Assembly (NCBI GenBank): GCA_036271595.1
Contig: DATBAI010000013.1
Coordinates: 7,154 to 71,153, forward strand
Reading direction: 5' to 3'
DNA: 64,000 bases
DNA from: Usitatibacter sp.
GTDB lineage: Bacteria > Pseudomonadota > Gammaproteobacteria > Burkholderiales > Usitatibacteraceae
Below the pieces are notes generated by a model. That model made no database searches, was not told where the DNA came from, and saw only the letters and a program-made list of their open reading frames with translations. Positions 5,834-30,651 of the stretch are shown piece by piece (the stretch's first letter is position 1; every line of letters starts with the position of its first letter). The position numbers and the translations under genes are program-made.

Positions 5834-7543
5834 ATGGTCACCACCAGCGCCCCCGAGGCGAAGAAATCGGCCGTCCCGAGCGACATCGAGATCGCCCAGC
5901 AGTCGAAGATGCAGCCCATCGCCGAGGTCGCGAAGAAGCTCGGCATCCCCGGGGACGCCATTTCCCCGTATGGGCACTACAAGGCGAAGGTATCGCTCGA
6001 GTACATCGACACGCTGAAGGGCAAGCCCGACGGCAAGCTGATCCTCGTGACCGCCATCAGCCCCACTCCGGCCGGCGAGGGCAAGACCACGACGACGGTG
6101 GGCCTGGGCGACGCGCTCAACGTGATCGGCAAGAAGGCGGTGATCTGCCTGCGTGAGCCTTCCCTCGGCCCCGTCTTCGGGATGAAGGGCGGCGCCGCCG
6201 GCGGCGGTTATTCGCAGGTCGTGCCGATGGAGGACATCAACCTCCACTTCACCGGCGATTTCGGCGCGATCCAGCTCGCGAACAATCTGCTCGCGGCGAT
6301 GATCGACAATCACATCAACCACGGCAACGAGCTCGGCTTCGACGTGCGCCGCATCGCGTGGAAGCGCGTGCTCGACATGAACGACCGGGCGCTGCGCCAG
6401 ATCACGGTCGCCCTCGGCGGGCCGGCCAACGGCTATCCGCGCGAGGACGGCTTCGACATCGTGGTCGCCTCCGAGGTGATGGCGATCTTCTGCCTGTCCA
6501 CCAGCATCAAGGACCTGAAGGCGCGCCTGGGCAACATCGTCTGCGGCTACACCCGGGACCAGAAGCCCATCCTCGCCAAGGACCTCAAGTGCCACGGCGC
6601 CATGGCCGCGCTCCTGAAGGACGCCATCGCGCCCAACCTGGTGCAGACGCTCGAGCATTCGCCGGCATTCATCCACGGCGGGCCCTTCGCGAACATCGCG
6701 CACGGCTGCAACTCGGTGCTCGCCACGCAGACGGCGCTCAAGCTGGGCGACTACGTGGTCACCGAGGCCGGCTTCGGCGCCGACCTGGGCGCCGAGAAGT
6801 TCATCGACATCAAGTGCCGCAAGACCGGGTTGAAGCCCTCGGCGGTGGTGCTCGTGGCCACGATCCGCGCGCTCAAGTATCACGGCGGCATCGAGGTGAA
6901 GGAGCTGGGCAAGCCCAACCTCGAGGCGCTCGCCAAGGGCATCACGAACATCGAGCGCCACGTGAGCAACATCCGCAACAACTACGGCCTTCCCTGCGTG
7001 GTGGCGATCAACCATCGCACCGAGGACACCGATGCGGAAATCGCGATGCTCCAGGAGAAGATGGCGCACCACGGCGCGAAGGTGATCCTCGCCCGCCACT
7101 GGGCCGAAGGCGGCAAGGGCGCCACCGATGTCGCGAAGGAAGTCGTGCGCCTTTGCGAGGAGCCCAGCAACTTCAAGTACGTCTACGAGGACGCGGCGCC
7201 GCTCTGGGACAAGATGAAGGCGATCGCCACGAAGATCTATGGCGCTTCCGACATCAGCGCGGATTCCAAGGTACGCGCGCAGATCAAGAAGCTGCAGGAG
7301 TCGGGCTACGGCCACTACCCGGTGTGCGTGGCGAAGACGCAGTACTCGTTCTCGACGGATCCGCAGCTTCGCGGCGCGCCCTCGGGCCACGTGGTGAACG
7401 TCCGCGAGGTGCGGCTCGCCGCGGGCGCGGAGTTCGTCGTGATGGTTTGCGGCGACATCATGACGATGCCGGGGCTTCCGAAGGTGCCGTCGGCCGTGAA
7501 CATCGACGTGGACGACAGCGGGAAGATCACCGGGCTCTTCTGA
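5834..7543 (+). CDS. fhs: Formate--tetrahydrofolate ligase
   Basis: [70 protein letters not shown]. Confidence 0.97.
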
Positions 7544-7556
7544 GCCGGTCGGCGCT

Positions 7557-8486
7557 TCAGGCGGCCCGGATGCCCGGGCTGTCACCCGCCTGCGTCGCGG
7601 CGAGGCGCTGCTTCGCGAACTTCACGAAGCCCTCGACCAGGCGGGAGTGGAACCGCTCCTTCGGATACACGACGGCGAGCTGGCGCACCAGCGGCGGCGC
7701 GAGCGCCACCTCGACCAGCTCTCCCAGGCGCAGCTCCTTGGCGACGGTGGCTCGCGACATGATGGCGAAGCCCAGGCCGGTCGCGACCAGCCGCTTGAGG
7801 GCTTCGGGGCTGCTCGCTTCCATTACGACCTGCAGGGCCTCGGGCGCCACGCCCGCCTCGTGCAGGTAGTGATCCACCACCTCGCGCGTCCCGGAGCCCA
7901 GCTCGCGGCTGATGTACGCATGCTCCGTGAGCGTCGGGGCCGACACGCTCGGCGCCCGGGCCAGCGCATGGCTGGGTGCGCAGACGACGCGCAGCTCGTC
8001 GTCGCAGCAGAAGTCGTTCACCAGCGAGGGCAGGTGCGAGTAGCCCTCGATGAAACCCAGGTCGAGGCTGCGCTCGGCCACGCGCGCCTGCACCACTTCC
8101 GAATTGGCGACGAAGAGCCGCGGCACCACCGCGGGATGGCGCGCCTTGAACTCTCCCAGCACCTGCGGCAACAGGAATTCGGCGATCGTGGTGCTCGCCC
8201 CGATGAGGAGCGGTCCCGATTCGACCCCGCTCATCTCCTTCAGGCGCGCATCGAGCTCCCCGGAGAGCGCGAGGATGCGCTCGGCATAGTCGAAGGCCAG
8301 GACGCCCGCCGGGGTGAGGACGATGCGGCCCTGCGCGCGGTCGAAGAGGCGCAGGTCGAACTGCTCTTCGAGCTGGCGAACCTGGAAGGTCACCGCCGGC
8401 TGCGTCATGAAGAGCGCTTCCGCAGCCTTGGTGAAGGAGAGGTGCTTGGCGACTGCATGGAAGACACGAAGCCGACGGTCGGCCAT
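7557..8486 (-). CDS. LysR-family transcriptional regulator (CysL-like)
   Basis: N-terminal HTH MADRRLRVF..SFTKAAEALFMTQPAVTFQVRQLE; GASTTIAE; RELGSGTR; divergent from msmA. Confidence 0.92.
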   Translation of the reverse strand: MADRRLRVFHAVAKHLSFTKAAEALFMTQPAVTFQVRQLEEQFDLRLFDRAQGRIVLTPAGVLAFDYAERILALSGELDARLKEMSGVESGPLLIGASTTIAEFLLPQVLGEFKARHPAVVPRLFVANSEVVQARVAERSLDLGFIEGYSHLPSLVNDFCCDDELRVVCAPSHALARAPSVSAPTLTEHAYISRELGSGTREVVDHYLHEAGVAPEALQVVMEASSPEALKRLVATGLGFAIMSRATVAKELRLGELVEVALAPPLVRQLAVVYPKERFHSRLVEGFVKFAKQRLAATQAGDSPGIRAA

Positions 8487-8787
8487 GTTCGACGCATTCT
8501 CGCGGTACGGGGCAGGAGTCCCCTCGGATCGAATATTATCGCGAAGGGCGGTCGCCTGCCCCGCACGGCGCGAGCGCCACCACGGCCGGCTTGCGGGCAA
8601 CAGGCTGGCCATCCTCGGGGCGTTTCATTTGGGGCGCCCGGAACCCGCGACTTTTCGAAACGAAACGTCCGGTGGCGGCTCGGCGTTCAGACCGACGCAG
8701 AAGTCTTTTCAATTGCCCCATGAGCGCCATACACTGGCCACAGACGCCAGCCGCCATGGCGGATTGCAGGAAATAAGGAGATATCGA

Positions 8788-10005
8788 ATGCCCAGGTCAG
8801 GAGCCGAGTGGAGCGCCCCACCGAAGTTTCCGGCGACGCACTACGTCGATTCGCGCATCTACAGCGACCCCGGTATTTTCGAGGAGGAGCTGGACAAGCT
8901 CTTCCGTCCCGCGTGGATCATCGCCTGCCACGAATCCGAGATCCCGAACGCGTTCGACTACCGCCTCTTCAATCACCCGGCGGGCGTGCCGCTCATCATC
9001 GTGCGCGGCGACGACCTGAAGGTGCGCGCGTTCTACAACATCTGCCCCCACCGCGGCAACACCATCCTCTACGACCCGGCCGGCAACGCGAAGCGCATGA
9101 CCTGCATCTTCCACCAATGGTCGTTCGACGTGCGCGGCAACTGCGTCGACATCTCGCGGGCCGAGCAGGGCTACCAGGATCGTTTCTGCAAGGCCGACGC
9201 GGGGCTGCGCGAGGTCAAATGCGAGATGGCGTTCGGCGGATTCGCGTGGGTGAACCTGGACGACGCGAGCGTGACGCTGAAGGAGTTCATCGGCCCCTCG
9301 CTGGACATCCTCTCGCCCTACATGGTCGAACCGATGGAGGTATTCCACTTCAACCGCGCCGTCGTCGACACCAACTTCAAGCTGTGGCACGACACGAATA
9401 GCGAGTTCTATCACGACTATGTGCACTACTTCAATCGCATCACCGGCATGATGCAGCCCGGCTACTTCGAGCGCAGGTACACGGGCTTCCCGAACGGCCA
9501 CGCGACGGTCGGCTCGATGCAAATCCAGTACGACAAGTACGAGGGCTCGAAGGAACGCGCGGTCGGCTGGCCCGGGCTTACGCCCGGTGGGTGGTACATG
9601 GTCGACCTCTTCCCGGGGATGACGTACAACCTGCGCACCTCGGTGCTTCGCATCGACACCGCGATCCCGTTGGGGCCCAACAAGGTCGCGATCGAGTTTC
9701 GCGGGCTGGGGTTGAAGAGCGACACGCCCCAGCAACGCGCGCAACGCATCTTCGACCACAACACGATCTGGGGCCCGTTCGGCCGCAACCTGCACGAGGA
9801 CCTGCTCGCGGTCCACGGCCAGGGGCGCGCCATGCGCGAGCGCACCGACAGCCGCTGGGTGATCCACGGGCGCGAGGAGAACAACACCATCCATGACGAG
9901 GTGGGAATGCGCCACTTCTATGCCGAGTGGACCCGGCGGATGGGACGCCCGTCCTATGCCCCGATGAGCGAGAACCCGCCGAACCCGGCGCGCGCGGTGG
10001 CGTGA
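8788..10005 (+). CDS. msmA: Rieske oxygenase alpha subunit, methanesulfonate monooxygenase-like
   Basis: RBS AAGGAG; CPH-x17-CIFH Rieske motif; EFYHDYVH and HEDLL mononuclear-Fe ligands; operon context. Confidence 0.8.
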   Translation: MPRSGAEWSAPPKFPATHYVDSRIYSDPGIFEEELDKLFRPAWIIACHESEIPNAFDYRLFNHPAGVPLIIVRGDDLKVRAFYNICPHRGNTILYDPAGNAKRMTCIFHQWSFDVRGNCVDISRAEQGYQDRFCKADAGLREVKCEMAFGGFAWVNLDDASVTLKEFIGPSLDILSPYMVEPMEVFHFNRAVVDTNFKLWHDTNSEFYHDYVHYFNRITGMMQPGYFERRYTGFPNGHATVGSMQIQYDKYEGSKERAVGWPGLTPGGWYMVDLFPGMTYNLRTSVLRIDTAIPLGPNKVAIEFRGLGLKSDTPQQRAQRIFDHNTIWGPFGRNLHEDLLAVHGQGRAMRERTDSRWVIHGREENNTIHDEVGMRHFYAEWTRRMGRPSYAPMSENPPNPARAVA

Positions 10006-10469
10006 GCGAGGCGATGGAACAACGACATCAGATCGAAGAGCTGGTCTACCGCTCGTGCCTTGCCCTCGACGACCAGGATTTCAAGGCCTTCCTGGAGCTG
10101 TGCGATCCCGGGTTTCGCTACACGGTGACGGCGTACAGCCCGGAGATCCGCAAGGAGATGACCTGGCTGGACCACGACAAGGCGGGCATGGAGACCCTCT
10201 TCACGCAACTGCCGCGGCACAACAGCGACCACTCGCCGCTCACGCGCCACGCGACCGTGTACACGGTGAAGGTCGACGGCGGCGAGGCGGAGGTGGTGTC
10301 GGCGCTGCAGGTGTTCCGCACCACCCTCGACGGCGGCACGACCGAGCTCTATACCGTTGCTCGCCTGGTCGACACCGTGAAGCTCGATGGCGCCGCTCCC
10401 AGGCTCGTGCGTCGCCACGTGCGGATGGGCACCCGCGAGCTCGGCTTCGGCACGCACATCCCGTTTTGA
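10002..10469 (+). CDS. msmB: Oxygenase beta subunit, MsmB-like
   Basis: LVYRSCL.LD..DF..FL.LC, AYSPEIRKEM.WLDHD; GTG overlaps the msmA stop (alternative ATG at 10014). Confidence 0.8.
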   Translation: MSEAMEQRHQIEELVYRSCLALDDQDFKAFLELCDPGFRYTVTAYSPEIRKEMTWLDHDKAGMETLFTQLPRHNSDHSPLTRHATVYTVKVDGGEAEVVSALQVFRTTLDGGTTELYTVARLVDTVKLDGAAPRLVRRHVRMGTRELGFGTHIPF

Positions 10470-10483
10470 GCGATCCACGCTGC

Positions 10484-11512
10484 ATGCGCATCCAGGTGAA
10501 CGCCCGCAACCGCGCCTTCCAGTTCGATGCGCTCCCGGGCGAGAAGATCCTCTATGCGGGCCTCAGGGCGCAGGCCGCGCTCCCCTACGAGTGCGCCACG
10601 GGCACGTGTGGAACCTGCAAGGCGCGCCTGGTCGAGGGACGCATCGAGGATGCGTGGCCCGAGGCCCCGGGGCGCAAGTTCCTGAAGGCCGATCGCGGCG
10701 AATTCCTCATGTGCCAGTGCTCGGCCCAGGGCGACCTCGCGATCGAGGTCGCGAGCTTCGTTCATCCGGCCGATCCCGGCGAGTCCCGGGTGGGGCATGT
10801 CGGCGGCTCGGTGCGCTCGGTGCGGCCCCTCACGCACGACGTGAGCGCGGTCGAGGTTACGCTGGACGCGCCGTGCGAATTCGAGGCCGGGCAGTTCATG
10901 GCGGTGAGCGCGCCAGGGGTCGTGGGCATGCGCGGCTACTCGATGGTGAACTTCGAGCAGCCGGCGCGGCGCCTGGACTTCGTGGTGAAGAGGAAGCCCG
11001 GCGGAGGTTTCTCCGAGTGGCTCTTCTCCGGCAACGCGGTTGGCGCGCGCCTGGAAATGTTCGGTCCGCTCGGCAAGGCGACCTTCCATCCGTCGGCGGG
11101 CAAGAACATCCTGTGCATCGCCGGCGGCAGCGGCATCGCCGGGATGATGTCGATCCTCGGGCGCGCCGCGGCCGCGGGCTGCATGGAGCGGCACGACTTC
11201 CGCGTCTTCTTCGGCATTCGAACCTTGCGCGACGCGTTCTTCCTTCAGGAGCTCTCCGCGTTCGCGAAGGCGCAGGTCACGATCGCGTTGTCCGAGGAAG
11301 ACGTTCCCGAGCTCGTCTCGAAACAATGGCCCGGCCTGCGCTTCGAGCGCGGCCTGGTGCACGAGGCCGCGAAGCGGGCCATGGCCGGGCGATACCAGGA
11401 CGTGCGCGCTTACCTCGCGGGCCCCCCACCGGCGGTGGAGGCGTCCATCCGCGTGCTGCTGCTGGAGGCGAAGCTCACCGCCGATTGCATCCGTTACGAC
11501 AAGTTCAGCTGA
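10484..11512 (+). CDS. msmD: Oxygenase reductase (plant-type 2Fe-2S + FAD/NAD domains), MsmD-like
   Basis: CATGTCGTC...C cluster motif, RGYSM FAD motif, GGSGIAG NAD motif, YLAGPP, terminal DKFS. Confidence 0.8.
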   Translation: MRIQVNARNRAFQFDALPGEKILYAGLRAQAALPYECATGTCGTCKARLVEGRIEDAWPEAPGRKFLKADRGEFLMCQCSAQGDLAIEVASFVHPADPGESRVGHVGGSVRSVRPLTHDVSAVEVTLDAPCEFEAGQFMAVSAPGVVGMRGYSMVNFEQPARRLDFVVKRKPGGGFSEWLFSGNAVGARLEMFGPLGKATFHPSAGKNILCIAGGSGIAGMMSILGRAAAAGCMERHDFRVFFGIRTLRDAFFLQELSAFAKAQVTIALSEEDVPELVSKQWPGLRFERGLVHEAAKRAMAGRYQDVRAYLAGPPPAVEASIRVLLLEAKLTADCIRYDKFS

Positions 11513-11515
11513 GCG

Positions 11516-12244
11516 ATGGCCAGACGAATGATCTGCCGAACCAGCGAGGTGCCGGCCAACGGGTTGAAGGAGTGCGAGCTGGATGGGGGCATGAAGCTGC
11601 TCGTGGCCAATTCCGGGAGCGAATACTTCGCCGTGCAGGCCACGTGCCCGCACCAGGAGGTTGCGCTCTGCGAAGGGATGTACGACGGCAACGTCCTCAC
11701 CTGCCACCAGCACTTGTGGCAATGGGACATCCGCACCGGCGCGGCCATGGGCATGGCGGAGGCGCCGCTCGAGCGCTACGACGTGAGCGTCGAGGGCGAT
11801 GCGATCTACGTCGGCGCGCAGGGCGCGCTCAACGTGGGCGAGCTCTTCAGCGGCATCGGGGCCGCGACGCTCGAGGCGCTGGCACGGCTCGCGCGTCGCG
11901 AGGAGTTCGCGGCGGGGCAGGCGCTCTACGGGCCCGGCGACCGCGCCGACGATTTCTTCGTGCTGGAGTCGGGCCGCGTCGAATTCCGGCTCGGCCGCGG
12001 AGAGAACGCCAACCCCGCGGGGTTCATGCTGAAGAAGGGCGAGGTCTTCGGATGGGCGGCGCTGGTAGACGGGCATTCGCAACGCATCGCGAGCGCGCGC
12101 GCCCTCGAGGATTCGGCGCTGCTGCGGGTGAACGGCAAGCAGGCCCTGCAGCTCCTCGAATCGGATCCGGCCTCGGGATTCATCGTGATGCGCCGGCTCT
12201 CGGCGCTGATCGCACGCTTCCTCGCCGACGCGGGGGCGAAGTGA
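11516..12244 (+). CDS. msmC: Rieske ferredoxin (MsmC-like) fused to a C-terminal cNMP-binding-fold domain
   Basis: CPH-x16-CHQH in the first ~105 aa; then GDRADDFFVLESGRV..GEVFGWAAL..RIASA; no HTH. Confidence 0.75.
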   Translation: MARRMICRTSEVPANGLKECELDGGMKLLVANSGSEYFAVQATCPHQEVALCEGMYDGNVLTCHQHLWQWDIRTGAAMGMAEAPLERYDVSVEGDAIYVGAQGALNVGELFSGIGAATLEALARLARREEFAAGQALYGPGDRADDFFVLESGRVEFRLGRGENANPAGFMLKKGEVFGWAALVDGHSQRIASARALEDSALLRVNGKQALQLLESDPASGFIVMRRLSALIARFLADAGAK

Positions 12245-12304
12245 TGGGAATGTCGATGTGAAGTTCCATTCGTGACTCAAAACGATAACGGAGGAGGTCG
12301 GACC

Positions 12305-13453
12305 ATGAACAAGGCGTTCAAGTGCTTCGCTGCCGCGGCGATGGTTTCAATGACGATTGCCGCGCCGGTAGCTTTCGCAAAGGACTACGGCAAGGTCGGC
12401 GAGCCGGTGCACCTCGTGATCGGCTACCAGCCCTACTACACGCAGGCCTGGTCGGCGGTGATCCAGAAGGAGATGAAGCCGTGGGAAAAATACCTTCCCA
12501 AGGGCTCCACCGTCGACTGGGAGGTGGGCCTCCAGGGCGCCATCGTCGGTAACGCGATGCTCGCCGACAAGAACGACATCGGCTACATGGGCGACATGCC
12601 CACCATCGTCGCGATCAGCAAGCGCGAAATCCGCGAGCTGCGCATGGTGGCGGTCCTGGGCCTCGCCAACGACCAGTGCAGCGTCTTCCTTTCGCGTAAC
12701 GAGGCGCCGGACTTCAAGACGCCCGAAGAGGCGATCAAGTGGTGGAACGGCAAGCGAATCGCCGTCGCGAAGGGCAGCTGCACCGACCGCAGCGCCCAGG
12801 AGGCGATGCGCAAGTACAACATCAAGCCGGAGCAATACCTGAACCAGAACATCGAGGTGCAGACCTCGAACTTCAAGGCGGGCCGCCTCGACGGCTCGAT
12901 CGTGTGGGAGCCCACCGCCTCGAAGATCGTGATGGAAGGCATCGCCAAGCGCATCGCCGACACCAAGGTGATCGGCAAGCTGGACGGCGGCTTCATGGCC
13001 ATGCAGGAGGAGCTGATCAAGCAGCGCCCCGACGTGGTGAAGGCCTGGCTCGAGGCCGAGCTCGACGCGGACCTCTATTGGTCCAAGCCCGAGAACTACA
13101 TGAGTGTCGTCGAGATGGCCCACAAGAACGCCCAGGGCTTCAGCAAGGAAGAGCTCTGGATGGCGATGGCGGGCAAGTATCCCAAGAGCATGGGCGGGGG
13201 CGACGTGCGCAACATCATGTACTACGGCATCAACGACGATGTGCGCAACATGATGAAGGACGAAGTCACGTTCCTGCACGAGATCAAGATCCTGCCGATG
13301 GCCGAGCTGCCGGCCGACCTCGTCGATTCGAGCTGGACCGACGAGATCCTCAAGCGCCGTGGCCTCAAGGTACCGCTCGCCAAGATCGTGGCGCAGGACC
13401 CGTCCAAGTATCCCGGCGGGAAGATCCAGCTCCCGGCGTCGTGGCGGGAGTGA
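12305..13453 (+). CDS. msmE: ABC substrate-binding protein, MsmE/SsuA-like
   Basis: RBS GGAGGAGG, signal peptide, IGYQPYYT, GLQGAIV.NAMLA, GYMGDMP. Confidence 0.75.
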   Translation: MNKAFKCFAAAAMVSMTIAAPVAFAKDYGKVGEPVHLVIGYQPYYTQAWSAVIQKEMKPWEKYLPKGSTVDWEVGLQGAIVGNAMLADKNDIGYMGDMPTIVAISKREIRELRMVAVLGLANDQCSVFLSRNEAPDFKTPEEAIKWWNGKRIAVAKGSCTDRSAQEAMRKYNIKPEQYLNQNIEVQTSNFKAGRLDGSIVWEPTASKIVMEGIAKRIADTKVIGKLDGGFMAMQEELIKQRPDVVKAWLEAELDADLYWSKPENYMSVVEMAHKNAQGFSKEELWMAMAGKYPKSMGGGDVRNIMYYGINDDVRNMMKDEVTFLHEIKILPMAELPADLVDSSWTDEILKRRGLKVPLAKIVAQDPSKYPGGKIQLPASWRE

Positions 13454-13489
13454 TGCCGGCGTATTCCCACCCGGGAGGCCGGACGCGCC

Positions 13490-16945: not shown

Positions 16946-16973
16946 TGGACACCGGGCCAAGGGGAGCGCCGCC

Positions 16974-19491: not shown

Positions 19492-19944
19492 TCAGCCGGC
19501 GGCGAGGATCACGAGCTCGCTGGTGAGGAGCACCGCCAGCCTCTTCATGACGCCGAAGCCGAGGTCGGTGTCCTCCTCCATGAGCTGCGTGAGGGCGGCT
19601 CCGTTGATCGCGAGGACCTCGCATGCGGTGAGGCAATACGCGGTGGCGATGCGCCGCGTGTGCCCCTCGACCAGCGGCGCCCAACCGAAGACGTCGCCGC
19701 GCCGGATGATGTCGCCGGCCGCGGTATCGCGCTTGGACAGGCCGAGCGTGAACCTCACCATGCCGTCGGCGAGCACGTAGAAATTGTCGACCGCGTCACC
19801 TACCGTGTAGATGCGCGTGTCGGCCTCGAACGAGCGCGCCTGGGCAAGCGCGGCGATGTGCTCGAGCTGCGAAGCGTGCAGGCCCGAGAAGAACCGCGCC
19901 TGCGAGAGGATGGCGCGCGCGTCGAGGGAGCTGACGGAGCTCAA
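19492..19944 (-). CDS. Stand-alone cNMP-binding-fold protein (FGW variant)
   Basis: GDAVDNFYVLADGMV..GDVFGWAPL..RRIATA; TTG start overlaps the panB-like stop. Confidence 0.8.
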   Translation of the reverse strand: MSSVSSLDARAILSQARFFSGLHASQLEHIAALAQARSFEADTRIYTVGDAVDNFYVLADGMVRFTLGLSKRDTAAGDIIRRGDVFGWAPLVEGHTRRIATAYCLTACEVLAINGAALTQLMEEDTDLGFGVMKRLAVLLTSELVILAAG

Positions 19945-22368: not shown

Positions 22369-23274
22369 CTACGCGGCTGCGGGGAGGATCAGCTCCATGC
22401 AGGTGCCGCCCTCCGGATGGTTGCTGGCGCTGAGCGAGCCGCCCAGCTCGTGCACGATTTCGTTGCAGATCGCGAGCCCCAGCCCCGTGCCCTCTCCGGG
22501 CGCCTTGGTGGTGAAGAACGGCTCGAAGATGCGCTCCAGGTCGTGCCCGGGTATCCCGGGGCCGGTGTCGCGCACCCGCACCCGCACGCGCCCGGCGGCG
22601 TCGCGCCCGGTGTCGATCTCGATGTCGCCGCGGCCCTGCATCGCCTGCGCGGCGTTCAGCATGATGTTGAAGAGCACCTGCTGCAGCTCGCCGGGGCGCG
22701 CCGGCGTCACGGCATCGGGCAAGCCGCGGCATGCGAACCGCACTTCCGCGCCCCAGCGGTTGTGGCGCAGCAGCCCGAGGGCCTCGCGCACGGCGGCGTC
22801 CACCGACTGCGGCTGCGGCGCATCGCCCGTCAACCGCGAGAAATCGCCCAACTTGCGGGTGATCGCGAGCACCCGCACGAGGTTACCCGCGATGGAGCTC
22901 AGGCCCTTCTCGACGGTCTCGGGCGTGACGCCGCGGGGCGACTGCAGGATCTGCACCATCGAGTGGATCGCGGCGAGCGGATTGGAGACCTCGTGGCAGA
23001 CGCCCGCGAGCATGAAGCCCAGGGAGGCGAGGCGCTGCATCTGCGGGTCGGGCGTGGTCCCGGGAAGGACGAACACGCAACGGCCCGCCGGAAGGTCGGC
23101 CACATGGGCCCCGGGGAGGCGTGCGGGATCCGAACGCCCGGCCAGGGCGCGCATCGCGGCATTCATGTGCAGCACTTTGCCATCGGTGCCGAGGATCGCC
23201 GCGGCGATCGGCATCGCGTCGAGCAGCGCCCGCAACTCGCCGGAAACCTCGGGTCGCGCGCCGGTGCGAATCAC
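22369..23274 (-). CDS. Cytoplasmic sensor histidine kinase (short PAS-like + HisKA + HATPase)
   Basis: HEVSNPL H-box, NAAQA N-box, DTGPG, FFTTK, GTGLGL; no TM segment. Confidence 0.85.
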   Translation of the reverse strand: MIRTGARPEVSGELRALLDAMPIAAAILGTDGKVLHMNAAMRALAGRSDPARLPGAHVADLPAGRCVFVLPGTTPDPQMQRLASLGFMLAGVCHEVSNPLAAIHSMVQILQSPRGVTPETVEKGLSSIAGNLVRVLAITRKLGDFSRLTGDAPQPQSVDAAVREALGLLRHNRWGAEVRFACRGLPDAVTPARPGELQQVLFNIMLNAAQAMQGRGDIEIDTGRDAAGRVRVRVRDTGPGIPGHDLERIFEPFFTTKAPGEGTGLGLAICNEIVHELGGSLSASNHPEGGTCMELILPAAA

Positions 23275-23275: not shown

Positions 23276-24481
23276 TCACGCGGCCCCGGGCGCCGCCCGC
23301 GCGATCGCCCGTTCGTCGATCGGCAAACACATCGCGCATGCGATCACCGACAGCGCGATCGACATGATCCACACCCACAGGTACGAGCCGGTCGCATCGA
23401 ATACCGCGCCGCCGGCCCAAGCGCCCGCGAACGCTCCCAGCTGGTGCCCGAGGAACGCGATCGAGAAGAGCGTCGAGAGGTATTTCAGCCCGAAGATCTG
23501 TCCCACCAGCGAGTTGGTGAGCGGCACGGTGCCCAGCCAGGTGAATCCCATCACCGCGGCGAAGAGGTAGATGCTGCCGAGGGTGATGGGCAGGCCGACG
23601 AAGAGCGCGATCGCCACGGCACGGATGGCGTAGACCCAGAAGAGCAGCCACTTGCGGCTGTAGCGTGCGCCGAGCGCGCCGGCGGCGAAGGAACCGACGA
23701 TGTTGAAGAAGCCGATGGTCGCGAGCGCCGCCATCGCATGCTGCGCGCCGAGGCCGCGGTCCACGAGGTAGGCCGGGAGGTGGACCATGATGAAGATCGT
23801 CTGGAATCCGCAAACGAGGAACGAGCCCGTGAGGAGCCAGAAGCCGCCGTGGCTCGCGGCTTCGGACAGGGCGCCGCCGATCGACTGCGTGCTTTCGTTC
23901 GCCGCCTCGTTTCGTCCCGACAGGGCGCCTCCGAGCGGGATCATCACGGCCGCGAGCGCGGCGAGCGTCGCGAGCGCCGGGAGCCAGCCCCACGCGTTGA
24001 TCAGCGCCTGTCCCGTCGGAAGCATCGCGAACTGCCCGAATGAGCCGGTGGCGCCGGCGAGGCCCACCGCCACCGAGCGGCGCTCGGGCGGGAATGCCCG
24101 CGCCACCACCGCGAGCACGACACCGAAGCCGGTGCCCGACAGCCCAAGGCCTACCAGCAGCCCGGCCGACAGGTCGAAGAGGAGCGCGTTCGTGGCATGG
24201 GCCATCGCGTAGAGGCCGATGGCATAGAGGATGGCGCCCGCGACGATGACGCGCCCGGCGCCCTTTCGGTCGGCGATCGCACCCGCGAACGGCATGGCGA
24301 GGCCCCACACCAAGTTCTGCAGCGCGATCGCGAAGGAGAACGTCTCGCGCCCCCAGCCGAGCTCGGCCGACATCGGGCGCAGGAAGAGTCCGAAGCTCTG
24401 GCGAATGCCGAGCGCGAGCATCAGGACGAGCCCGGCGCAGGCGAGGACTACCGTGGGCGTGCGCCAGCGACCGTGATCCAG
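23276..24481 (-). CDS. MFS transporter (possible CTG start)
   Basis: GIRQSFGLF, 12 predicted TM helices; GGGAGG RBS 5-6 nt before an in-frame CTG giving 401 aa. Confidence 0.85.
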   Translation of the reverse strand: MDHGRWRTPTVVLACAGLVLMLALGIRQSFGLFLRPMSAELGWGRETFSFAIALQNLVWGLAMPFAGAIADRKGAGRVIVAGAILYAIGLYAMAHATNALLFDLSAGLLVGLGLSGTGFGVVLAVVARAFPPERRSVAVGLAGATGSFGQFAMLPTGQALINAWGWLPALATLAALAAVMIPLGGALSGRNEAANESTQSIGGALSEAASHGGFWLLTGSFLVCGFQTIFIMVHLPAYLVDRGLGAQHAMAALATIGFFNIVGSFAAGALGARYSRKWLLFWVYAIRAVAIALFVGLPITLGSIYLFAAVMGFTWLGTVPLTNSLVGQIFGLKYLSTLFSIAFLGHQLGAFAGAWAGGAVFDATGSYLWVWIMSIALSVIACAMCLPIDERAIARAAPGAA

Positions 24482-24512
24482 GAACGCCTCCCCATGGCCG
24501 AATTGGACAAGC

Positions 24513-24671
24513 CTACGGCTTTTTCGGGGTCTTGTACTCGTCTTCCTTGTGGAGCGGCTTCCAGACGGTCTCGTAACCGACAAATCCCTTTTCGTTCGGA
24601 GGCTTCTGCCGCGTCGTGTAGTAAGGCGTATGGCCGTCGGGGACCTTGGTGACGGGTTTTTGCTCGCTCAT
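24513..24671 (-). CDS. Small 52-aa hypothetical protein (not in the ORF track)
   Basis: GGAG RBS + ATG; MSEQKPVTKVPDGHTPYYTTRQKPPNEKGFVGYETVWKPLHKEDEYKTPKKP; fills the gap in the operon. Confidence 0.75.
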   Translation of the reverse strand: MSEQKPVTKVPDGHTPYYTTRQKPPNEKGFVGYETVWKPLHKEDEYKTPKKP

Positions 24672-24701
24672 GGGTCAGCTCCTTTCGCGTGAATTCATTT
24701 T

Positions 24702-25211
24702 TCAAACCGGCCTCATGAGCGACCCATCGACGCGGGGCTGCGCGCCGATCGCCCGGCCGGCCTTCGTCTCTTCGCCGGTCGCCTCGCGCACCGTGAGGAT
24801 CTCGAGGCGGAAGACGACTTCCCTGCCGCAAAGGGGATTGTTGCCGTCGACCGTGAGCGTCTCGTCGTCCACTCGCGTCACGATGAAGCTGCGGGCGTGG
24901 CCCTTGTCGCTTTCCATGAGGATGGAAGTGCCGACGCGCCGATACTCCTCGGGGACGTTCTCGATGCGGTCGGAAAAAACCAGCGACTCGTCCCTCGGCC
25001 CGAAGATGCGGTTGCCGTCGATCGGGACCTCGATCACATCGCCGACGGACCTGCCCTCCAGCTCCTTGTGGACCGACGGGGCGAGAATCTCATTGTGTCC
25101 GTGGACGTAGCCCAACGGGAATTCGACGCATGTGAGGACATGACCCGATTTCCCGTCGATCACCTGGTAGGTGAGCTCGACGAACTTGCCGTCCTGGATG
25201 GATTCGCTCAT
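24702..25211 (-). CDS. SlyD-like FKBP-type peptidyl-prolyl isomerase
   Basis: VELTY, YVHG, FGPRD, VDGNNPLCG (cf. DGNHPLAG); no His-rich tail. Confidence 0.75.
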   Translation of the reverse strand: MSESIQDGKFVELTYQVIDGKSGHVLTCVEFPLGYVHGHNEILAPSVHKELEGRSVGDVIEVPIDGNRIFGPRDESLVFSDRIENVPEEYRRVGTSILMESDKGHARSFIVTRVDDETLTVDGNNPLCGREVVFRLEILTVREATGEETKAGRAIGAQPRVDGSLMRPV

Positions 25212-25217
25212 GTCCGC

Positions 25218-25568
25218 TCAGAAGATGGACGCGGCGAAGATCCTCGCCTCGCCGTCCTCGTACCCGAGCACCAGCCGGCCGAGCCATTCGCCCTGCTTGC
25301 GGGTGCTGCGTTGCCGGTAGAGGACCGTCGCATGCTCGCCGCGGCGGATGATGCCGAGATAGTCGGGGTCCTCGGCGAGGCTCCGCGCGAGCTCGCTGTT
25401 CGCGAACTGGTGGTTCACCACGACCTGATCCATGGCAAGCGCCAGGGAGCGGGCGAACTTCTTCACGAAGTCCCCGTACTTGCCTTCGTTGGAGTACTTG
25501 AGGAGATCGCGCCACAGCGGATCGGCCATGGCGCGTATCTCCTCGTCGGTCCTGTCGATGATGTTCAA
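25218..25568 (-). CDS. Hypothetical protein downstream of aprA (~116 aa)
   Basis: TTG start just after the aprA stop, 6 nt gap to the slyD-like gene; start inferred. Confidence 0.65.
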   Translation of the reverse strand: MNIIDRTDEEIRAMADPLWRDLLKYSNEGKYGDFVKKFARSLALAMDQVVVNHQFANSELARSLAEDPDYLGIIRRGEHATVLYRQRSTRKQGEWLGRLVLGYEDGEARIFAASIF

Positions 25569-25579
25569 CGCCGCCCCGG

Positions 25580-27448
25580 CTAGTCGCTTTCCGCGACCAG
25601 GTGGTAGCAGGGCGCTTTTTCCATGGTGTATTCGCCGCTTTGAGGATCGCGGCGCGAGACCGTGAGCACGTGCCAGTTCTCGTCGTCCACCTTCATGGCG
25701 TCGCCACGGTAGTAGTAGCCCGGCCAGCGCGTCTCCTTGCGGAAGAGCGTGTGGTGGGTGACGCACTCCGCGGCCCGGTGGCGGTGCATGAGCTCCCATG
25801 CGCGCAACAACTCGTGAAGGTCCTTCGCGGCGAGGCTCTGGAGGTCCTCCTCCATGATCTGGAGCTTCTTCAGGCAGATGTTGAGGAGCTTCTCGTTGGT
25901 CATGTACCTCACGGTATAGCCGCCGCAGTACTCGTCCATGAGCTTTTGCAGGCGGTCCAGGCCCTGCTGCGGATTGATGTAGTGCGGGTTGACGGTCCCC
26001 GCCACGACGGCGTTGCGATAGATCCTGTAGTGCTCCAGGGGCTTGTAGATCTCCTTCCTGCGCCGCTCGACCTGGTCATCGGATACGACGATTCCCTCGC
26101 CATTCCCGTCGTCGATGTATTTGCACGCGGCCTTCGCTGCGAGGCGGCCTTCGGTGAACGAGCCCGACGAGAAGGCGTGGGGAGTGCCGCCCACCGCATC
26201 GCCGGCGCCGAAGAGGCCTTCGATCGTCGTCATGCGGTTGTAGCCCCAGAAATATTCGGGCGGGGAGACGTCCTCGGGGCCCGAGCACCAGGCGCCCGAG
26301 CACGTGGCGTGGGAGCCCATGACGTACGGCTCGGAGGTGGTGAGCTCGGGATTCTCGTTCTTGGGATCCACGTCGGTGGCGGCCCACAGGACTGCCTGGC
26401 CGATGGTCATTCCGAGGAAATTTTCCCAGCCGACCTCTTCCAGGTGAGGGTCCTGGAAGGCCGGCATGGTCACCATGTGGATGGGCCCGCGGCCCGCGTT
26501 CACCTCGCTGATGATGCAATGGTTGCGCAGGCACGTCGGGATGGGCCGATGGGTCAGGTGGGAGGCTTCCGGATCGAGGTACTCCTTGCCGACCATCTTC
26601 TGGAGATCGGGGAACCACTTGGATTCGTACTCTTCCCCCAGGGCGTTTTGCGTATAGGTCTTCAGGTGCAGGAAGTAGGCGCCGACCGGGCCGTAGCCAT
26701 CCTTGAATCGCGCCAGCACGATGCGATTTTCCATCTGCGTCATCTTGGCGCCGGCGTCGATCATGAGCCCGTAGGCGGACGCGGACGACCAGGGCGCATA
26801 CCAGGTGCGGCCGGCACCTTCGCCGGTCGAGCGCGGCTTGAAGATGTTGGAGGCGCCGCCCGCGCCGCAGATCACGGCCTTCGCCTTGAAGACGTGGTAG
26901 TTGCCCGTGCGCACGTTGAAGCCGACGGCACCGGCGACCCGGTTCGGCTTCGCTTCATCCATCAGCAGGTGCGTCACGCAGATGCGGTTGAAGACCTTGT
27001 CGGCCGATTTCTTGGCGGCTTCGGCCACGATCGGCTTGTAGGATTCGCCGTGGATCATGATCTGCCATCGGCCCTCACGAAGATAGCGCCCGGTTTTCGG
27101 GTTCTTCATGATGGGCAGGCCCCACTCTTCGAACTGGTGCACGGTGGAGTCGACGTGGCGGGCCATGTCGAACAGCAGGTCTTCGCGCACCAGCCCCATC
27201 AGGTCGATGCGGGCATACCGGACGTGGTCTTCGGGATTGTTCTCGCCCCAGCGGGTGCCCATGTAGCAGTTGATGGCGTAGAGGCCCTGGGCGACGGCGC
27301 CGGAGCGATCGATGTTGGCCTTCTCGGCAATGACGATCTTCTTGTCCTGGCCCCAGAACCTGGCTTCCCATGCGGCTCCGGTGCCGCCGAGGCCCGCACC
27401 GACGACCAGGACATCGATGCCGTCTTCGACGATCGTGTTGTAGGCCAT
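25580..27448 (-). CDS. aprA: Adenylylsulfate reductase alpha subunit (AprM-associated, oxidative type)
   Basis: VVGAGLGGTG, DRSGAVAQGLYAINCY, WQIMIHGESYK, FKDGYGPVGA, SEPYVMGSHA, HAFSSGSFTEG. Confidence 0.97.
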   Translation of the reverse strand: MAYNTIVEDGIDVLVVGAGLGGTGAAWEARFWGQDKKIVIAEKANIDRSGAVAQGLYAINCYMGTRWGENNPEDHVRYARIDLMGLVREDLLFDMARHVDSTVHQFEEWGLPIMKNPKTGRYLREGRWQIMIHGESYKPIVAEAAKKSADKVFNRICVTHLLMDEAKPNRVAGAVGFNVRTGNYHVFKAKAVICGAGGASNIFKPRSTGEGAGRTWYAPWSSASAYGLMIDAGAKMTQMENRIVLARFKDGYGPVGAYFLHLKTYTQNALGEEYESKWFPDLQKMVGKEYLDPEASHLTHRPIPTCLRNHCIISEVNAGRGPIHMVTMPAFQDPHLEEVGWENFLGMTIGQAVLWAATDVDPKNENPELTTSEPYVMGSHATCSGAWCSGPEDVSPPEYFWGYNRMTTIEGLFGAGDAVGGTPHAFSSGSFTEGRLAAKAACKYIDDGNGEGIVVSDDQVERRRKEIYKPLEHYRIYRNAVVAGTVNPHYINPQQGLDRLQKLMDEYCGGYTVRYMTNEKLLNICLKKLQIMEEDLQSLAAKDLHELLRAWELMHRHRAAECVTHHTLFRKETRWPGYYYRGDAMKVDDENWHVLTVSRRDPQSGEYTMEKAPCYHLVAESD

Positions 27449-27927
27449 CAGTAGTACACGCCTTTCTTCAGCTTGAGGCCGGCGTCCTCGAGCGTACGCA
27501 GGCCCCCTTCGTCCATGCGAATCCACTTCGGCTCGTTGTACAGCAGCTGGCCGTCGCGTTCCGCCTTGCTGGGCGCGGGAACGTCCGCGAGCTTCGGGAT
27601 CGCCGTTCCCCAGGGCTTCGTGGTGATGGGCGACAGGAAGTTCTTTTCGGTGCCGTCGCGGAACTTGATCTTCCAGGCGATCGTGCCCTTGCGCTCGTCG
27701 CGGTCGACCCGGACGCTGTGGCCGAGCGGGGCGAAATCGGCATATCCGCGCACGTCGATCGCATGCTGGGGGCAGGCCTTCACGCAGGAGTAGCACTCCC
27801 AGCACATGTTCGGCTCGATGTTGTAGGCGCGCCGGTAGATCGGATCGATGTGCATGATGTCGGAGGGGCAGATGTCGACGCAGTGTCCGCATCCGTCGCA
27901 CCTCGTCATGTAGACGAAGGTAGGCAT
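27448..27927 (-). CDS. aprB: Adenylylsulfate reductase beta subunit
   Basis: MPTFVYMTRCDGCGHCVDICP; CWECYSCVKACP; VRGYADF. Confidence 0.97.
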   Translation of the reverse strand: MPTFVYMTRCDGCGHCVDICPSDIMHIDPIYRRAYNIEPNMCWECYSCVKACPQHAIDVRGYADFAPLGHSVRVDRDERKGTIAWKIKFRDGTEKNFLSPITTKPWGTAIPKLADVPAPSKAERDGQLLYNEPKWIRMDEGGLRTLEDAGLKLKKGVYY

Positions 27928-27949
27928 AGTCGGCTCCTTGGGCTGTGTT

Positions 27950-28771
27950 CTAGTAGTGGCGGGGCGCTTCGCGCTTGATGCCGAGCCCCATGTCCATCGG
28001 AGCGTCTCGCAACAGCTCCATGGAGTGCCGCTTTTGTTGTTCCGGATCCGCACGGCCATGCGTCGGCAGGTTCTCGGCCGTGCCATCGGCCTTCGATACC
28101 CGCTTCTCGAAGGCCGCGGCGGGCTTGAAGAACATGTGTGCGAACTTGGACCACGTGACCCCGCCGAAGAGCACCGTGGTGGCGAGCAGGTAGAGCAGGA
28201 AAAGCCAGCCCGTGCCCCCGCCTCGCCACGCCCAGAGGAGGGCGAGGGTCACGCTCGCGAGGAGCGACAGGACGAAGAGGTCGGCACGCATCACGCGCCA
28301 GGGCGACTGGCCCTCGGCGGCCACGTCGGCGCGGATGAAGAACCAGAACCAGTAGCCGCCCAACGCGACTGCGAGCGCGCCGATCCACCAGAGCGTGGGC
28401 ACGATGGGTGCGGGCGTCGCGGGGTAGCCGAATACCATGATGGCCGTGGTGCCCACGTAGAGCAGGAAGCCGTACATCGTGAGCAGGTGCGCGAGACGGC
28501 GCCGCGGGTTGCAGAACTCGCCCGAGGCGAGGACATCGACCACGGCGGTCTGCACGGCGATCGACACGAGCTCGCCGCCCGCGACCGGCCGCGCGCCCTT
28601 CGCGGTGCGCGATTTCTTCATGTTGGCGAAGAAGTACCTCGCGCTTGCCTTGTGCGTCATGTCGACGAGGACCCCGATCACCACCGCGGCGACCATCAGG
28701 CAGAGGTACCACTCCATGAAGCCGGCAGGCAGGGACTGCATCGCCGGTGCGAACGGGTTGGTGCCGAACAT
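27950..28771 (-). CDS. aprM: APS reductase membrane anchor
   Basis: N-terminal NPF, EFCN..RR.AHLLTMYGF, WFWFFIR.DV, WSKF.HMFFKP; directly upstream of aprB. Confidence 0.9.
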   Translation of the reverse strand: MFGTNPFAPAMQSLPAGFMEWYLCLMVAAVVIGVLVDMTHKASARYFFANMKKSRTAKGARPVAGGELVSIAVQTAVVDVLASGEFCNPRRRLAHLLTMYGFLLYVGTTAIMVFGYPATPAPIVPTLWWIGALAVALGGYWFWFFIRADVAAEGQSPWRVMRADLFVLSLLASVTLALLWAWRGGGTGWLFLLYLLATTVLFGGVTWSKFAHMFFKPAAAFEKRVSKADGTAENLPTHGRADPEQQKRHSMELLRDAPMDMGLGIKREAPRHY

Positions 28772-28864
28772 GTTTTGCCTCCTCGGGTTGCGGTCGATTC
28801 TACGATCGGGTCCCGCGCGCGCCGCCGCAAACTTTGCTATGCGCCCATCAAAAGGCTCGTGGCC

Positions 28865-29371
28865 CTATAACACCTTGATGTCGAACGACATGGTGGCCAG
28901 GTCGGCGAGGATCCAGGTCGCCGGCGCAGCCAGCCCCGCCACCGTTCCCGGGTTCACGAGCCACGTGGTGCCACCCTTCACGTTGTCGACCTGGCGGGCC
29001 TCCGCGCGGTGCGAATGGCCGCAGCAGACGAGCTCCCAGTCGCCGGTGCAGGCCATCGCGTAGCCGTGGTGGTCGTAGTGGACGACGACCATGCGGCGCC
29101 CGCCCAGCTCGAGGGTCGCCTCCGCGCCATGGTATTGGAGCAGGCCGCCGCTCTTGCGGGACTGGAAGTGCATCGCCTGGGCATCGCCCAGGTTGTTGCC
29201 GTGGATCGCGTGCACGGGCAGCCCCGCGGCCAAGGCGGGCTTCATCGTCTGCGCGCCGATCAGGTCGCCGCAATGGATGACCGCCTCGGCGCCCAGCGCC
29301 TTTGCCGCCTCCACCGCCTGGGCCAGGGGATCGGCACGATCGTGGCTGTCGGAGACGATGCAGATCTTCAC
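28865..29371 (-). CDS. Metallophosphoesterase (YfcE-like)
   Basis: SDSH, HCGD, HGNN, GHSH and NPG motifs; GTG start. Confidence 0.85.
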
Positions 29372-29478
29372 CGAGCCATTATCGAGCAAGCCGTCGCGGG
29401 CCTCAATCGAGCCGCTTTATCGGCTCATCAGGAATATCGGGCTTGTCACCCCGGCGGGGTGCGAGGTCCAATTGCGCC

Positions 29479-30651
29479 ATGCCACTTCCTCCCCCGCACG
29501 GCGGCAAGGGCCTCCGGCCGCTGCTTGTCCAGGGCGCCGAGCTCGCCGCCGAAGCCAGGCGCGCCGGCTCGCTCCCGCGTGTCACCGTGACTTCGCGCGA
29601 GAAGGGTGACCTGGTCATGCTCGGCCTGGGCGGCTTCTCTCCGCTCGATGGGTTCATGCGCCGGGCCGATTGGGAAGGCGTGTGCAACACCATGCACACC
29701 GCCGACGGCACCTTCTGGCCGATCCCGATCACGCTGTCCACCGACCCCGCGGCCGCCGATACCCTCTCGCCGGGCAAGTCGGAAATCGCGCTCGTGGATC
29801 CGGACGACGGTTCGGTCCTCGCCATCATGTCGGTCGCGGAAAAGTACGGCATCGACAAGCGCCACGAGTGCTTGTCCGTGTTCCGTACCGACGATCCCGC
29901 GCATCCTGGCGTGCAGATGGTGATGCGCCAGGGAGACGTGAACCTCGGCGGCCCCGTGAAGGTGCTCTCCGACGGCGGCTTCAAGGCCAAGTATGGGCAG
30001 CTCTTCAAGACCCCCGCCGAGACGCGCGCCGAGTTCGAACGCCTGGGCTGGTCGCAAGTGGCCGCATTCCAGACGCGAAATCCCATGCATCGCTCTCACG
30101 AGTATCTCGCGAAAGTCGCGGTGGAGACTTGCGACGGCGTGCTGGTGCACTCGCTGCTCGGCCACCTCAAGCCCGGCGACATCCCGGCCGAGGTGCGCAC
30201 GCGGGCGATCGGCGTACTGATCGAGAAATATTTCGTGCCCGGCACGGTCGTGCAGGCCGGCTATCCCCTCGACATGCGCTACGCGGGCCCGCGAGAGGCG
30301 CTGCTGCATGCCGTGTTCCGCCAGAACTACGGCTGCTCTTCCCTGATCGTCGGGCGCGACCATGCCGGCGTGGGCAAGTTCTACGGCCCCTTCGACTCCC
30401 ACCGGATCTTCGACGAGATCCCCGAGGGCTCGCTCGAGATCAAGCCGATGAAGCTGGACCTCACTTTCTGGTGCCATGCGTGCGGCGGCATGGCCTCGGG
30501 ACGCACTTGCCCTCACGGCGACGCGGACCGGCTGCAGGTTTCCGGCACGGAAGTTCGCAAGGCGCTTGCGGAGCGCAGCCCGATCGCCGCGGGATTCTCG
30601 CGGCCGGAGGTCCTCGAGATCCTGCGCGAGTACTACGACACCTTGGCGTAG
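29479..30651 (+). CDS. sat: Sulfate adenylyltransferase (ATP sulfurylase, homo-oligomeric type)
   Basis: [48 protein letters not shown]. Confidence 0.96.

Follow-up and report, generated by a model that had tools for sequence, protein, structure and literature searches.

Gene content of the locus

A 64,000-nucleotide stretch of a Usitatibacter sp. genome (assembly GCA_036271595.1, contig DATBAI010000013.1, positions 7,154 to 71,153), referred to here as the window and numbered from its first nucleotide, carries a gene cluster for a Rieske oxygenase resembling methanesulfonate monooxygenase (MSAMO, encoded by msm genes) together with aprMBA and sat, the genes of the adenosine 5'-phosphosulfate (APS) pathway of sulfite oxidation. 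Open reading frames were called using third-position GC and frame analysis, start codons were checked, and the window proteins were searched against the Pfam and NCBIfam families. The initial annotation of this DNA had placed fhs, a LysR-family regulator, msmA-B-D-C-like genes, an importer, folD, a GcvT-like gene, tauE, a PanB-like gene, a two-component system, aprMBA and sat at 5834-30651, and the family searches confirmed all of them, as well as the A-B-D-C order of the oxygenase genes and the tiny intergenic gaps. Five genes had been omitted, encoding a major facilitator superfamily (MFS) transporter, a stand-alone cyclic nucleotide monophosphate (cNMP)-binding protein, two small proteins and a metallophosphoesterase. 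GC content was even across the whole window (64-70%).

The oxygenase genes lie in a ten-gene operon on the plus strand (8788-17837) that encodes oxygenase, reductase, ferredoxin, importer and FolD. It is preceded by fhs for formate-tetrahydrofolate ligase (5834-7543, plus strand; PF01268 (FTHFS), 897 bits), a single copy gene in this genome, and a LysR-family regulator gene is divergent from it (7557-8486, minus strand; HTH_1 and LysR_substrate). The operon starts with the MsmA-like oxygenase alpha subunit (8788-10005; Rieske and Ring_hydroxyl_A) followed by an MsmB-like beta subunit (about 10002-10469, the start being uncertain between 9927, 10002 and 10014; Ring_hydroxyl_B and SnoaL_4), an MsmD-like reductase (10484-11512; Fer2, FAD_binding_6 and NAD_binding_1) and an MsmC-like Rieske ferredoxin fused to a cNMP-binding domain (11516-12244; Rieske at residues 5-80, cNMP_binding at residues 129-217). 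The importer genes encode an SsuA-family binding protein (12272-13453; TIGR01728 and NMT1_2), a permease (13490-14365; BPD_transp_1), an ATPase (14362-15228; ABC_tran), a second permease (15225-16064; BPD_transp_1) and an extra, second ATPase (16046-16945; ABC_tran). The last gene of the operon is folD (16974-17837), with both tetrahydrofolate (THF) dehydrogenase/cyclohydrolase domains.

On the minus strand a series of 13 genes, spaced by -4 to 149 nt, runs from 29389 to 17848. The metallophosphoesterase gene (28865-29389; Metallophos_2, 99 bits) heads the apr gene string and is followed by genes for an AprM-like membrane protein (27950-28771), AprB (27448-27927) and AprA (25580-27448), the aprA ATG overlapping the aprB stop. 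Two small proteins are encoded after aprA (25218-25568 and 24702-25211; no Pfam match even at E = 1), and then, as identified by family search, an MFS transporter (23276-24583), a histidine kinase (22369-23274) and a response regulator of the sigma-54 activator type (20996-22366). The series ends with genes for a PanB-like hydroxymethyltransferase paralog (19941-20846; PF02548, 268 bits), the stand-alone cNMP-binding protein (19492-19944; PF00027), a TauE/SafE anion exporter (18735-19484; PF01925, 130 bits) and a short GcvT-like folate-binding protein (17848-18738; GCV_T, 166 bits). The sat gene (29479-30651, plus strand) is divergent from the metallophosphoesterase gene. Such clustering goes well beyond what chance would give, since these sets of genes are found together again in many other species.

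Identity of the oxygenase

The oxygenase alpha subunit carries the Rieske motif CPH-X17-CIFH, in general form CXH-X17-CXXH, and the 17-residue spacer (X17) was present in all 120 of its closest homologs (69-91% identical). Proteins with a 26-residue spacer (X26) from Burkholderia sp. RPE67, Methylobacterium nodulans, P0122 and a genome of the same genus as the window (G052; L001-L080 denote related loci and G denotes genomes, G000 being the window's own genome) were used as comparators for the motif. Identity of the alpha subunit to X26 MsmA was 53% for M. nodulans and 54% for RPE67. A search of 1.8 billion cluster representatives returned an X26 protein, at 50% identity, as the nearest 50%-identity cluster beyond the query's own, with the next full-length clusters at 45% or less. 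Over 1,200 homolog clusters and 261 species-level genome matches were obtained, among them the oxygenase of Methyloversatilis universalis FAM5 (72% identical to the window alpha subunit).

A maximum-likelihood tree was inferred and midpoint-rooted after addition of the X26 proteins from RPE67 plasmid p3 and M. nodulans pMNOD01. All X26 and X17 sequences formed one clade with 100/100 support, which places the window oxygenase inside the MsmA clade as a member of a short-spacer subgroup. The main X17 group was sister to the RPE67 X26 protein (93/91), a clade of X17 paralogs fell just outside and the alphaproteobacterial X26 proteins were basal. With X17 positioned inside X26 in this topology, the short spacer would most simply reflect the secondary loss of a nine-residue loop. 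Apart from this loop no position was fixed differently between 80 X17 and 6 X26 sequences, and eight positions that are invariant in the joint X17 and X26 clade were rare outside it, including R124 and R132 in an R-x3-GYQDR motif. The beta subunit, the Rieske ferredoxin and the FAD/NAD/2Fe-2S reductase are all encoded beside the alpha subunit, and all four components were homologous to those of X26 systems (beta 38-49%, reductase 46-48%, Rieske part of the ferredoxin 38-45% identical). The ferredoxin differs by its extra cNMP domain. By its sequence the oxygenase is a short-spacer MsmA-like protein nested in the MsmA clade and not a canonical MsmA. The proposal that it is a methanesulfonate monooxygenase agrees with the clade placement and the homologous components; because the X26 spacer is absent, we treat methanesulfonate as an inferred rather than an established substrate.

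Several other sources were consulted for the identity of the oxygenase. The JGI name "methanesulfonate monooxygenase" was set aside as a homology label because X17 sequences and sequences free of the Rieske motif bear the same name, which is also attached to a 41%-identical X17 cluster and to a second, 38%-identical cluster. NCBIfam had no MsmA model, and the best matches there were aromatic dioxygenases far under their cut-offs. The PDB held no MSAMO structure, and the nearest chains aligned over the Rieske domain only. The P0273 contig and G052 were rejected as canonical msm references, as their X26 alpha and beta genes sit in TctC/GntR contexts with no reductase or msmEFGH genes. The ferredoxins of X26 systems (M. 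nodulans, RPE67 and the P0273 locus) were about 105-122 residues long and had no cNMP domain. The stand-alone cNMP-binding protein of the window shared 42% identity with the C-terminal part of the ferredoxin fusion, its cNMP-binding domain.

Three loci (L010 at 4757-5941, L027 at 6212-7396 and L072 at 4871-6055) carry a paralogous X17 oxygenase, 54-61% identical, within a few kb of their main msmA-like gene, and in G119 one such gene (C31:7880-9100) lay 2.2 kb from aprA. These paralogs suggest a second sulfonate substrate.

Importer, C1 genes and conserved neighbourhood

Scanning one genome per species gave 261 loci with the oxygenase, and the neighbourhoods of the best 80 were examined. The operon from the msmA-like gene to the second ATPase was kept wherever the contig was long enough. 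Matches were found to the reductase in 72 of the 80 loci, to the ferredoxin fusion in 64 (at least half length), to the binding protein in 66 and to the second ATPase in 55. The gcvT-like gene and tauE were each present in 22 loci, folD after the importer in 17, an adjoining PanB-like gene in 11 and fhs beside the msmA-like gene in 10.

The importer genes lie beside the oxygenase in the order E-F-G-H (SsuA-family protein, permease, ATPase, permease) with the second ATPase added. The binding protein scored 88 bits against TIGR01728, below the subfamily cut-off of 163.5, which indicates membership at the family level only; its likeness to MsmE comes from family and gene order. Two distinct types of binding protein, 79-88% and about 50% identical to that of the window, occurred with otherwise similar operons.

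FolD and Fhs are both complete, as expected for THF-linked C1 oxidation. The locus copies of folD, the GcvT-like gene and the PanB-like gene are dedicated extra paralogs in their own genome: a second folD elsewhere is 57% identical to the locus copy, a GcvT homolog elsewhere is 31% identical and three more PanB homologs are 29-35% identical. The PanB-like protein itself was 88-94% identical in related loci. The GcvT-like protein fell below the equivalog cut-offs (NF001567, 148.9 vs 300 bits; TIGR00528, 116.6 vs 235.85 bits), and by sequence it is a GcvT-fold folate-binding protein and not GcvT proper. The stand-alone cNMP-binding protein travels with panB and tauE in related loci. The larger block of MFS transporter, histidine kinase, response regulator, panB, cNMP-binding protein, tauE and gcvT recurred in G010, L039 and L040. 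It was also present with the MFS transporter and histidine kinase but no match to the regulator in G004 and G007, and with the histidine kinase only in G001 and G002.

The Apr/Sat module

AprA (TIGR02061, 1083.9 bits vs a cut-off of 641.75) and AprB (TIGR02060, 199.5 bits vs 135.65) scored above the equivalog cut-offs, and aprA is a single copy gene in this genome. Sat, with PUA_2 and ATP-sulfurylase domains, was above the family cut-offs for a dissimilatory-type ATP sulfurylase (NF003166, 483.7 bits vs 387; TIGR00339, 382.3 bits vs 322.95). The AprM of Allochromatium vinosum, encoded upstream of aprB in the sat-aprMBA operon, is described as a membrane protein that has about five helices and lacks any known domain (PMC3779200). 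The AprM-like protein of the window (273 residues, no Pfam domain) is likewise encoded directly upstream of aprB, has four strong hydrophobic helices and a fifth Trp/Gly-rich stretch, and shows weak similarity to the membrane parts of QmoC and TcuB; it was likened to the published AprM by description. AprM rather than QmoABC beside aprBA, together with a genome lacking dsrAB, gives indirect support to an oxidative direction of Apr, from sulfite to APS.

Further parts of the apr string were also conserved. The YfcE-like metallophosphoesterase gene adjoined aprM in 12 other loci (L007, L012, L021, L022, L029, G001, G002, G004, G007, G009, G020 and G052). To our knowledge no function has been described for a protein of this kind alongside APS reductase; its substrate might be APS, AMP or pyrophosphate (PPi). 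Copies of the two small proteins, 74-82% identical, followed aprA in G001, G002, G020, L038 and G052, and the 169-residue one looks by eye like a SlyD/FKBP-type protein. The sat gene was also found beside apr or the msmA-like gene in L012, L031, L036, G007, G009 and G052. Across G001-G050 and an order-level genome sample, AprA fell into score classes of about 1075-1099, 950-1000 and 900-947 bits. Only the first two occurred beside an msmA-like gene and the lowest included the G022 and G024 copies that lie close to dsrA. The score classes may match the published AprM-type and Qmo-type lineages.

Linkage of apr and sat to the oxygenase cluster

Of the genomes with the best 80 loci, 50 were searched in full for aprA and seven loci were extended. 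A complete aprA was present in at least 35 of the 50. This neighbourhood search found aprA on the same contig as the msmA-like gene, 2.7-17.8 kb apart, in 15 other species, so that with the window the linkage occurs in at least 16 betaproteobacterial species from soil and fresh water. Within 10 kb of the msmA-like gene, apr was present in 8 and sat in 3 of the 80 loci. At least five arrangements of apr relative to the oxygenase cluster were seen. G010 has the layout of the window; G001, G002, G004 and G007 have the apr string in the same place but inverted; L012, L021, L022, L029 and L031 have metallophosphoesterase-aprMBA, with or without sat, directly upstream of msmA; L007 has a divergent arrangement; and in G009 and G020 apr lies 9-13 kb upstream. 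By score the linked AprA proteins formed two groups, with identities to the window AprA of about 93% and about 70%.

The association was also assessed in an order-level sample of 401 evenly drawn genomes. The aprA gene was found in 13 of 17 carriers of the X17 oxygenase compared to 82 of 384 non-carriers (Fisher p = 3.8e-6, uncorrected for phylogeny), and by genus in 9 of 11 compared to 37 of 156. The dsrA gene was found in none of the 15 linked genomes and was absent from 44 of the 50 carriers. In the six carriers with dsrA, a copy of aprA was 16-36 kb from dsrA in three (G022, G023 and G024) and the genes were on different contigs in the other three; where dsrA was present, aprA never adjoined the msmA-like gene.

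A synteny unique to this genome and created by recent recombination does not fit these results, as the linkage recurs in 15 of 50 other species and signs of transfer were not seen. Recent transfer of the locus was considered and rejected: no tRNA gene was found, the scanned flanking genes had no mobile-element domain, and the GC content is even. The flanks consist of housekeeping genes, with rho downstream at 39997-41256.

In the same-genus genome G052 (C14; L081/L082), X26 msmA and msmB genes were found 13 kb from sat-metallophosphoesterase-aprMBA, with an AprA 96% identical to that of the window. No reductase, ferredoxin or msmEFGH genes were nearby, and TctC/TctA-like transporters, a GntR regulator and an NhaA fusion lay between. 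This 13-kb distance was not accepted as evidence of linkage, as the X26 genes there sit in a TctC/GntR context and cannot serve as bona fide msm references.

Sulfur genes elsewhere in the genome

The window's own genome is 92% complete. The initial annotation had reported no sox or dsr genes in the window, and this held for the window itself; dsrA was also not found in the rest of the genome, but soxB and a gene for a SoxC-like molybdoenzyme were present on another contig (G000:C81:4171-10302). Because of these two genes, the genome probably oxidises thiosulfate too. As dsrA, an sHdrB-like gene and xsc were not found in the genome, there is no other evident cytoplasmic source of sulfite.

Comparison with known systems

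The closest parallel among proven methanesulfonate degraders is 'Candidatus' Filomicrobium marinum strain Y, which has a single msm locus of about 20 kb (KM879220; Henriques & De Marco 2015, PMC4433239). Both loci encode a LysR regulator, TauE/SafE, GcvT-like and PanB-like proteins, msmEFGH with an extra ATPase, a four-component Rieske monooxygenase and a sulfite-oxidising module. In Filomicrobium, however, MsmA is of the X26 type, the oxygenase genes follow the order A-B-C-D, msmABCD and msmEFGH form divergent operons, and the sulfite dehydrogenase is periplasmic and of the SoxCD type. The window instead has an X17 alpha subunit, the order A-B-D-C, a cNMP-fused ferredoxin, an adjoining fhs, and oxygenase, importer and folD in one operon, with cytoplasmic AprMBA and Sat replacing SoxCD.

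Henriques & De Marco listed "MsmA" annotations with n = 17 in Methylibium, Methyloversatilis, Ralstonia and Thiobacillus (PMC4433239). Those of Methyloversatilis universalis FAM5, Methylibium petroleiphilum PM1 and Thiobacillus spp. belong to the same protein group as the window protein. Methyloversatilis has an alpha subunit 71-72% identical to that of the window and the same operon of msmA, msmB, reductase, ferredoxin-cNMP fusion and importer; unlike the window, it has no apr/sat in the locus and no aprA in the genome. The clusters of M. nodulans ORS 2060 (pMNOD01) and Burkholderia sp. RPE67 (p3) encode homologs of the window's beta subunit, reductase and Rieske ferredoxin, and RPE67 also has the window's order of A, B, reductase and ferredoxin. 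The M. nodulans cluster consists of a LysR gene, msmABCD-tauE, then a sulfite-oxidising molybdoenzyme with cytochrome c, and formate dehydrogenase. Unlike the window, both of these X26 systems have an MFS transporter in place of the ABC importer, no THF genes in the cluster and no apr/sat.

The apr/sat part resembles A. vinosum sat-aprMBA (PMC3779200), which has the same AprM-AprB-AprA order and an adjoining dissimilatory Sat. There, reverse Dsr supplies the sulfite as inorganic sulfur is oxidised, and sat and aprMBA are transcribed together. The window differs by having no Dsr, a divergent sat, a metallophosphoesterase before aprM, two small proteins after aprA and sulfonate-catabolic neighbours.

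Proposed pathway and alternative explanations

In the proposed pathway the MsmEFGH-like ABC importer with its SsuA-family binding protein would take up a C1 sulfonate, and the three-component Rieske monooxygenase (alpha/beta hydroxylase, ferredoxin and NADH reductase) would cleave it to formaldehyde and sulfite. The C1 unit would then be transferred to THF, probably via the GcvT-like and/or PanB-like paralogs, after which the dedicated FolD would oxidise the C1-THF and Fhs would release formate with a gain of ATP. AprBA would convert sulfite and AMP to APS with electrons passing via AprM to the quinone pool, Sat would produce sulfate and ATP from APS and PPi, and TauE would export sulfite or sulfate. 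The oxygenase operon and the apr/sat genes would presumably be co-regulated. Methanesulfonate is suggested as the substrate by context, as a sulfonate importer, an anion exporter, a sulfite-oxidising module and THF C1 enzymes suit an enzyme that yields sulfite and formaldehyde. We consider it fairly probable that this is a C1-sulfonate catabolic locus, most likely for methanesulfonate, in which an X17 relative of MsmA is coupled to cytoplasmic sulfite oxidation by the APS pathway. The initial idea that both products of C-S cleavage are harvested by one system is in keeping with the gene content, the linkage and the extra folD, GcvT-like and PanB-like copies, and is qualified by an inferred substrate and by the dispensability of Apr.

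Several observations weigh against coupled methanesulfonate catabolism at this locus. The alpha subunit does not have the CXH-X26-CXXH signature of canonical MsmA, and the 26-residue spacer occurs in every organism proven to grow on methanesulfonate (PMC4433239). The same authors found no hard data for short-spacer proteins oxidising methanesulfonate (PMC4433239); in M. universalis FAM5 the genes were not expressed with methanol or methylamine, and that work did not report growth on methanesulfonate. In the tree, the nodes nesting X17 within X26 had support of 93/91-93/93, under the 95/80 that the tool marks as strong. The closest relative of the window, with an MsmA-like protein 89% identical and a genome rated 100% complete, has no aprA, and aprA was not found in Methyloversatilis, Polynucleobacter or the complete genome ZE-4 either. 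Apr is not obligatory for the oxygenase cluster. Much of the linkage is in one part of the oxygenase tree, and the genomes compared, being related, do not count as independent samples. In the window's own genome there are four sulfite-oxidase-family genes on other contigs, the SoxC-like gene and three more, and with soxB these mean that other routes for sulfite may exist.

The short-spacer oxygenase could have some other small molecule as its substrate, for example a different short sulfonate, methanesulfinate, dimethylsulfone or a further methylated compound. In that case the locus would still yield sulfite and a C1 unit and feed Apr/Sat without being a methanesulfonate pathway. The missing X26 signature and the published record, in which no short-spacer protein is tied to methanesulfonate (PMC4433239), are in line with this, as are the 54-61% identical X17 paralogs in the same neighbourhoods, which suggest substrate diversification, and the two binding-protein types (79-88% and about 50%) found with near-identical oxygenase operons. 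Some X26 proteins also occur in non-msm contexts (TctC, GntR and aldehyde dehydrogenase), so even the specificity of the clade may be broader. However, only a C1 sulfonate explains the sulfonate importer, TauE, the sulfite module and the THF C1 genes together, the same accessory set surrounds the proven Filomicrobium msm genes, and X17 is nested in X26 with no fixed residue differences between them. We regard a different substrate as rather unlikely.

The link between the two gene sets, as opposed to the substrate, could have a trivial origin if AprMBA and Sat served general inorganic sulfur oxidation and were neighbours of the oxygenase by descent. The soxB and SoxC-like genes of the window's own genome would fit such a role, some members of the same genus have dsrAB and aprA with no msmA-like gene, and many carriers have aprA unlinked or absent. 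Shared ancestry does explain part of the linked count, because the oxygenases of most of the 15 linked genomes group in a single region of their tree (75-88% identity). Nevertheless, the linkage survives the rearrangements, including the placement of apr 2.7 kb directly upstream of msmA, and involves aprA from both score groups. The dsrA distribution also speaks against adjacency by descent, in that no linked genome has dsrA and aprA lies near dsrA in three of six genomes and never by the msmA-like gene. No Dsr, sHdrB-like gene or Xsc was found here as a cytoplasmic sulfite source for Apr, and the Sox pathway is periplasmic. An adjacency devoid of functional meaning is in our view improbable. 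A functional link restricted to sulfite detoxification, or to making APS for some other purpose while the main flux leaves by TauE or periplasmic sulfite dehydrogenases, appears very improbable. TauE is kept with the operon more widely than apr (22 loci vs 8 within 10 kb) and the sulfite-oxidase-family genes offer another outlet, but a conserved apr string of four to six genes plus sat beside catabolic genes would be costly for detoxification alone, and an AprM anchor with a dissimilatory-type Sat makes the pathway energy-conserving in sulfur oxidisers (PMC3779200).

Relation to published work

Oxidation of dimethyl sulfide in the atmosphere yields methanesulfonate as a major product. Only a few organisms, mainly alphaproteobacterial methylotrophs, are known to degrade it, and these are recognised by the X26 signature of MsmA. 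The function of the short-spacer group was left open by Henriques & De Marco in 2015 (PMC4433239). In the present analysis the short-spacer MsmA-like proteins, common in Betaproteobacteria of soil, groundwater and fresh water, are surrounded by the full range of genes expected for C1-sulfonate catabolism. The combination of msm and apr/sat in a single locus had been thought new, and the literature search turned up no paper treating msmA and aprA as one locus. The underlying ideas have precedents: organosulfonate desulfonation feeding Apr/Sat has been proposed at the genome level for SAR202 and SAR11 (PMC5864207), delivery of organosulfonate sulfite to Apr/Sat has been proposed for subsurface genomes (PMC12019592), and an msm locus with an attached sulfite dehydrogenase has been published for Filomicrobium SoxCD (PMC4433239). 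The novelty lies in combining a short-spacer oxygenase, a single operon for oxygenase, importer and folD, and the APS pathway in place of a periplasmic sulfite dehydrogenase, with recurrence in at least 16 species. No new kind of enzyme or mechanism is revealed. The apr linkage, kept through several rearrangements, provides a physical link and a concrete operon for the published idea that Apr and Sat oxidise sulfite derived from organosulfonates in bacteria lacking Dsr.

That short-spacer MsmA-like proteins in general are true C1-sulfonate monooxygenases, with an Apr-linked energy-conserving route widespread in Dsr-less Burkholderiales, is a more tentative proposition to which we give slightly under an even chance. 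If the X17 proteins are methanesulfonate monooxygenases, both the carbon and the sulfur of methanesulfonate would yield ATP and an APS reductase would be dedicated to organosulfonate sulfite. The route, so far undescribed, would be widespread in Burkholderiales that have no Dsr. The known methanesulfonate degraders of soil and fresh water would be greatly enlarged in number, and the Apr idea would gain a genetically tractable locus.

Directly after sat (31160-36541), the window encodes a Ser/Thr protein kinase with a C-terminal cNMP-binding domain followed by three GlcD-like FAD oxidase genes. The kinase is the third protein with a cNMP domain inside 20 kb.

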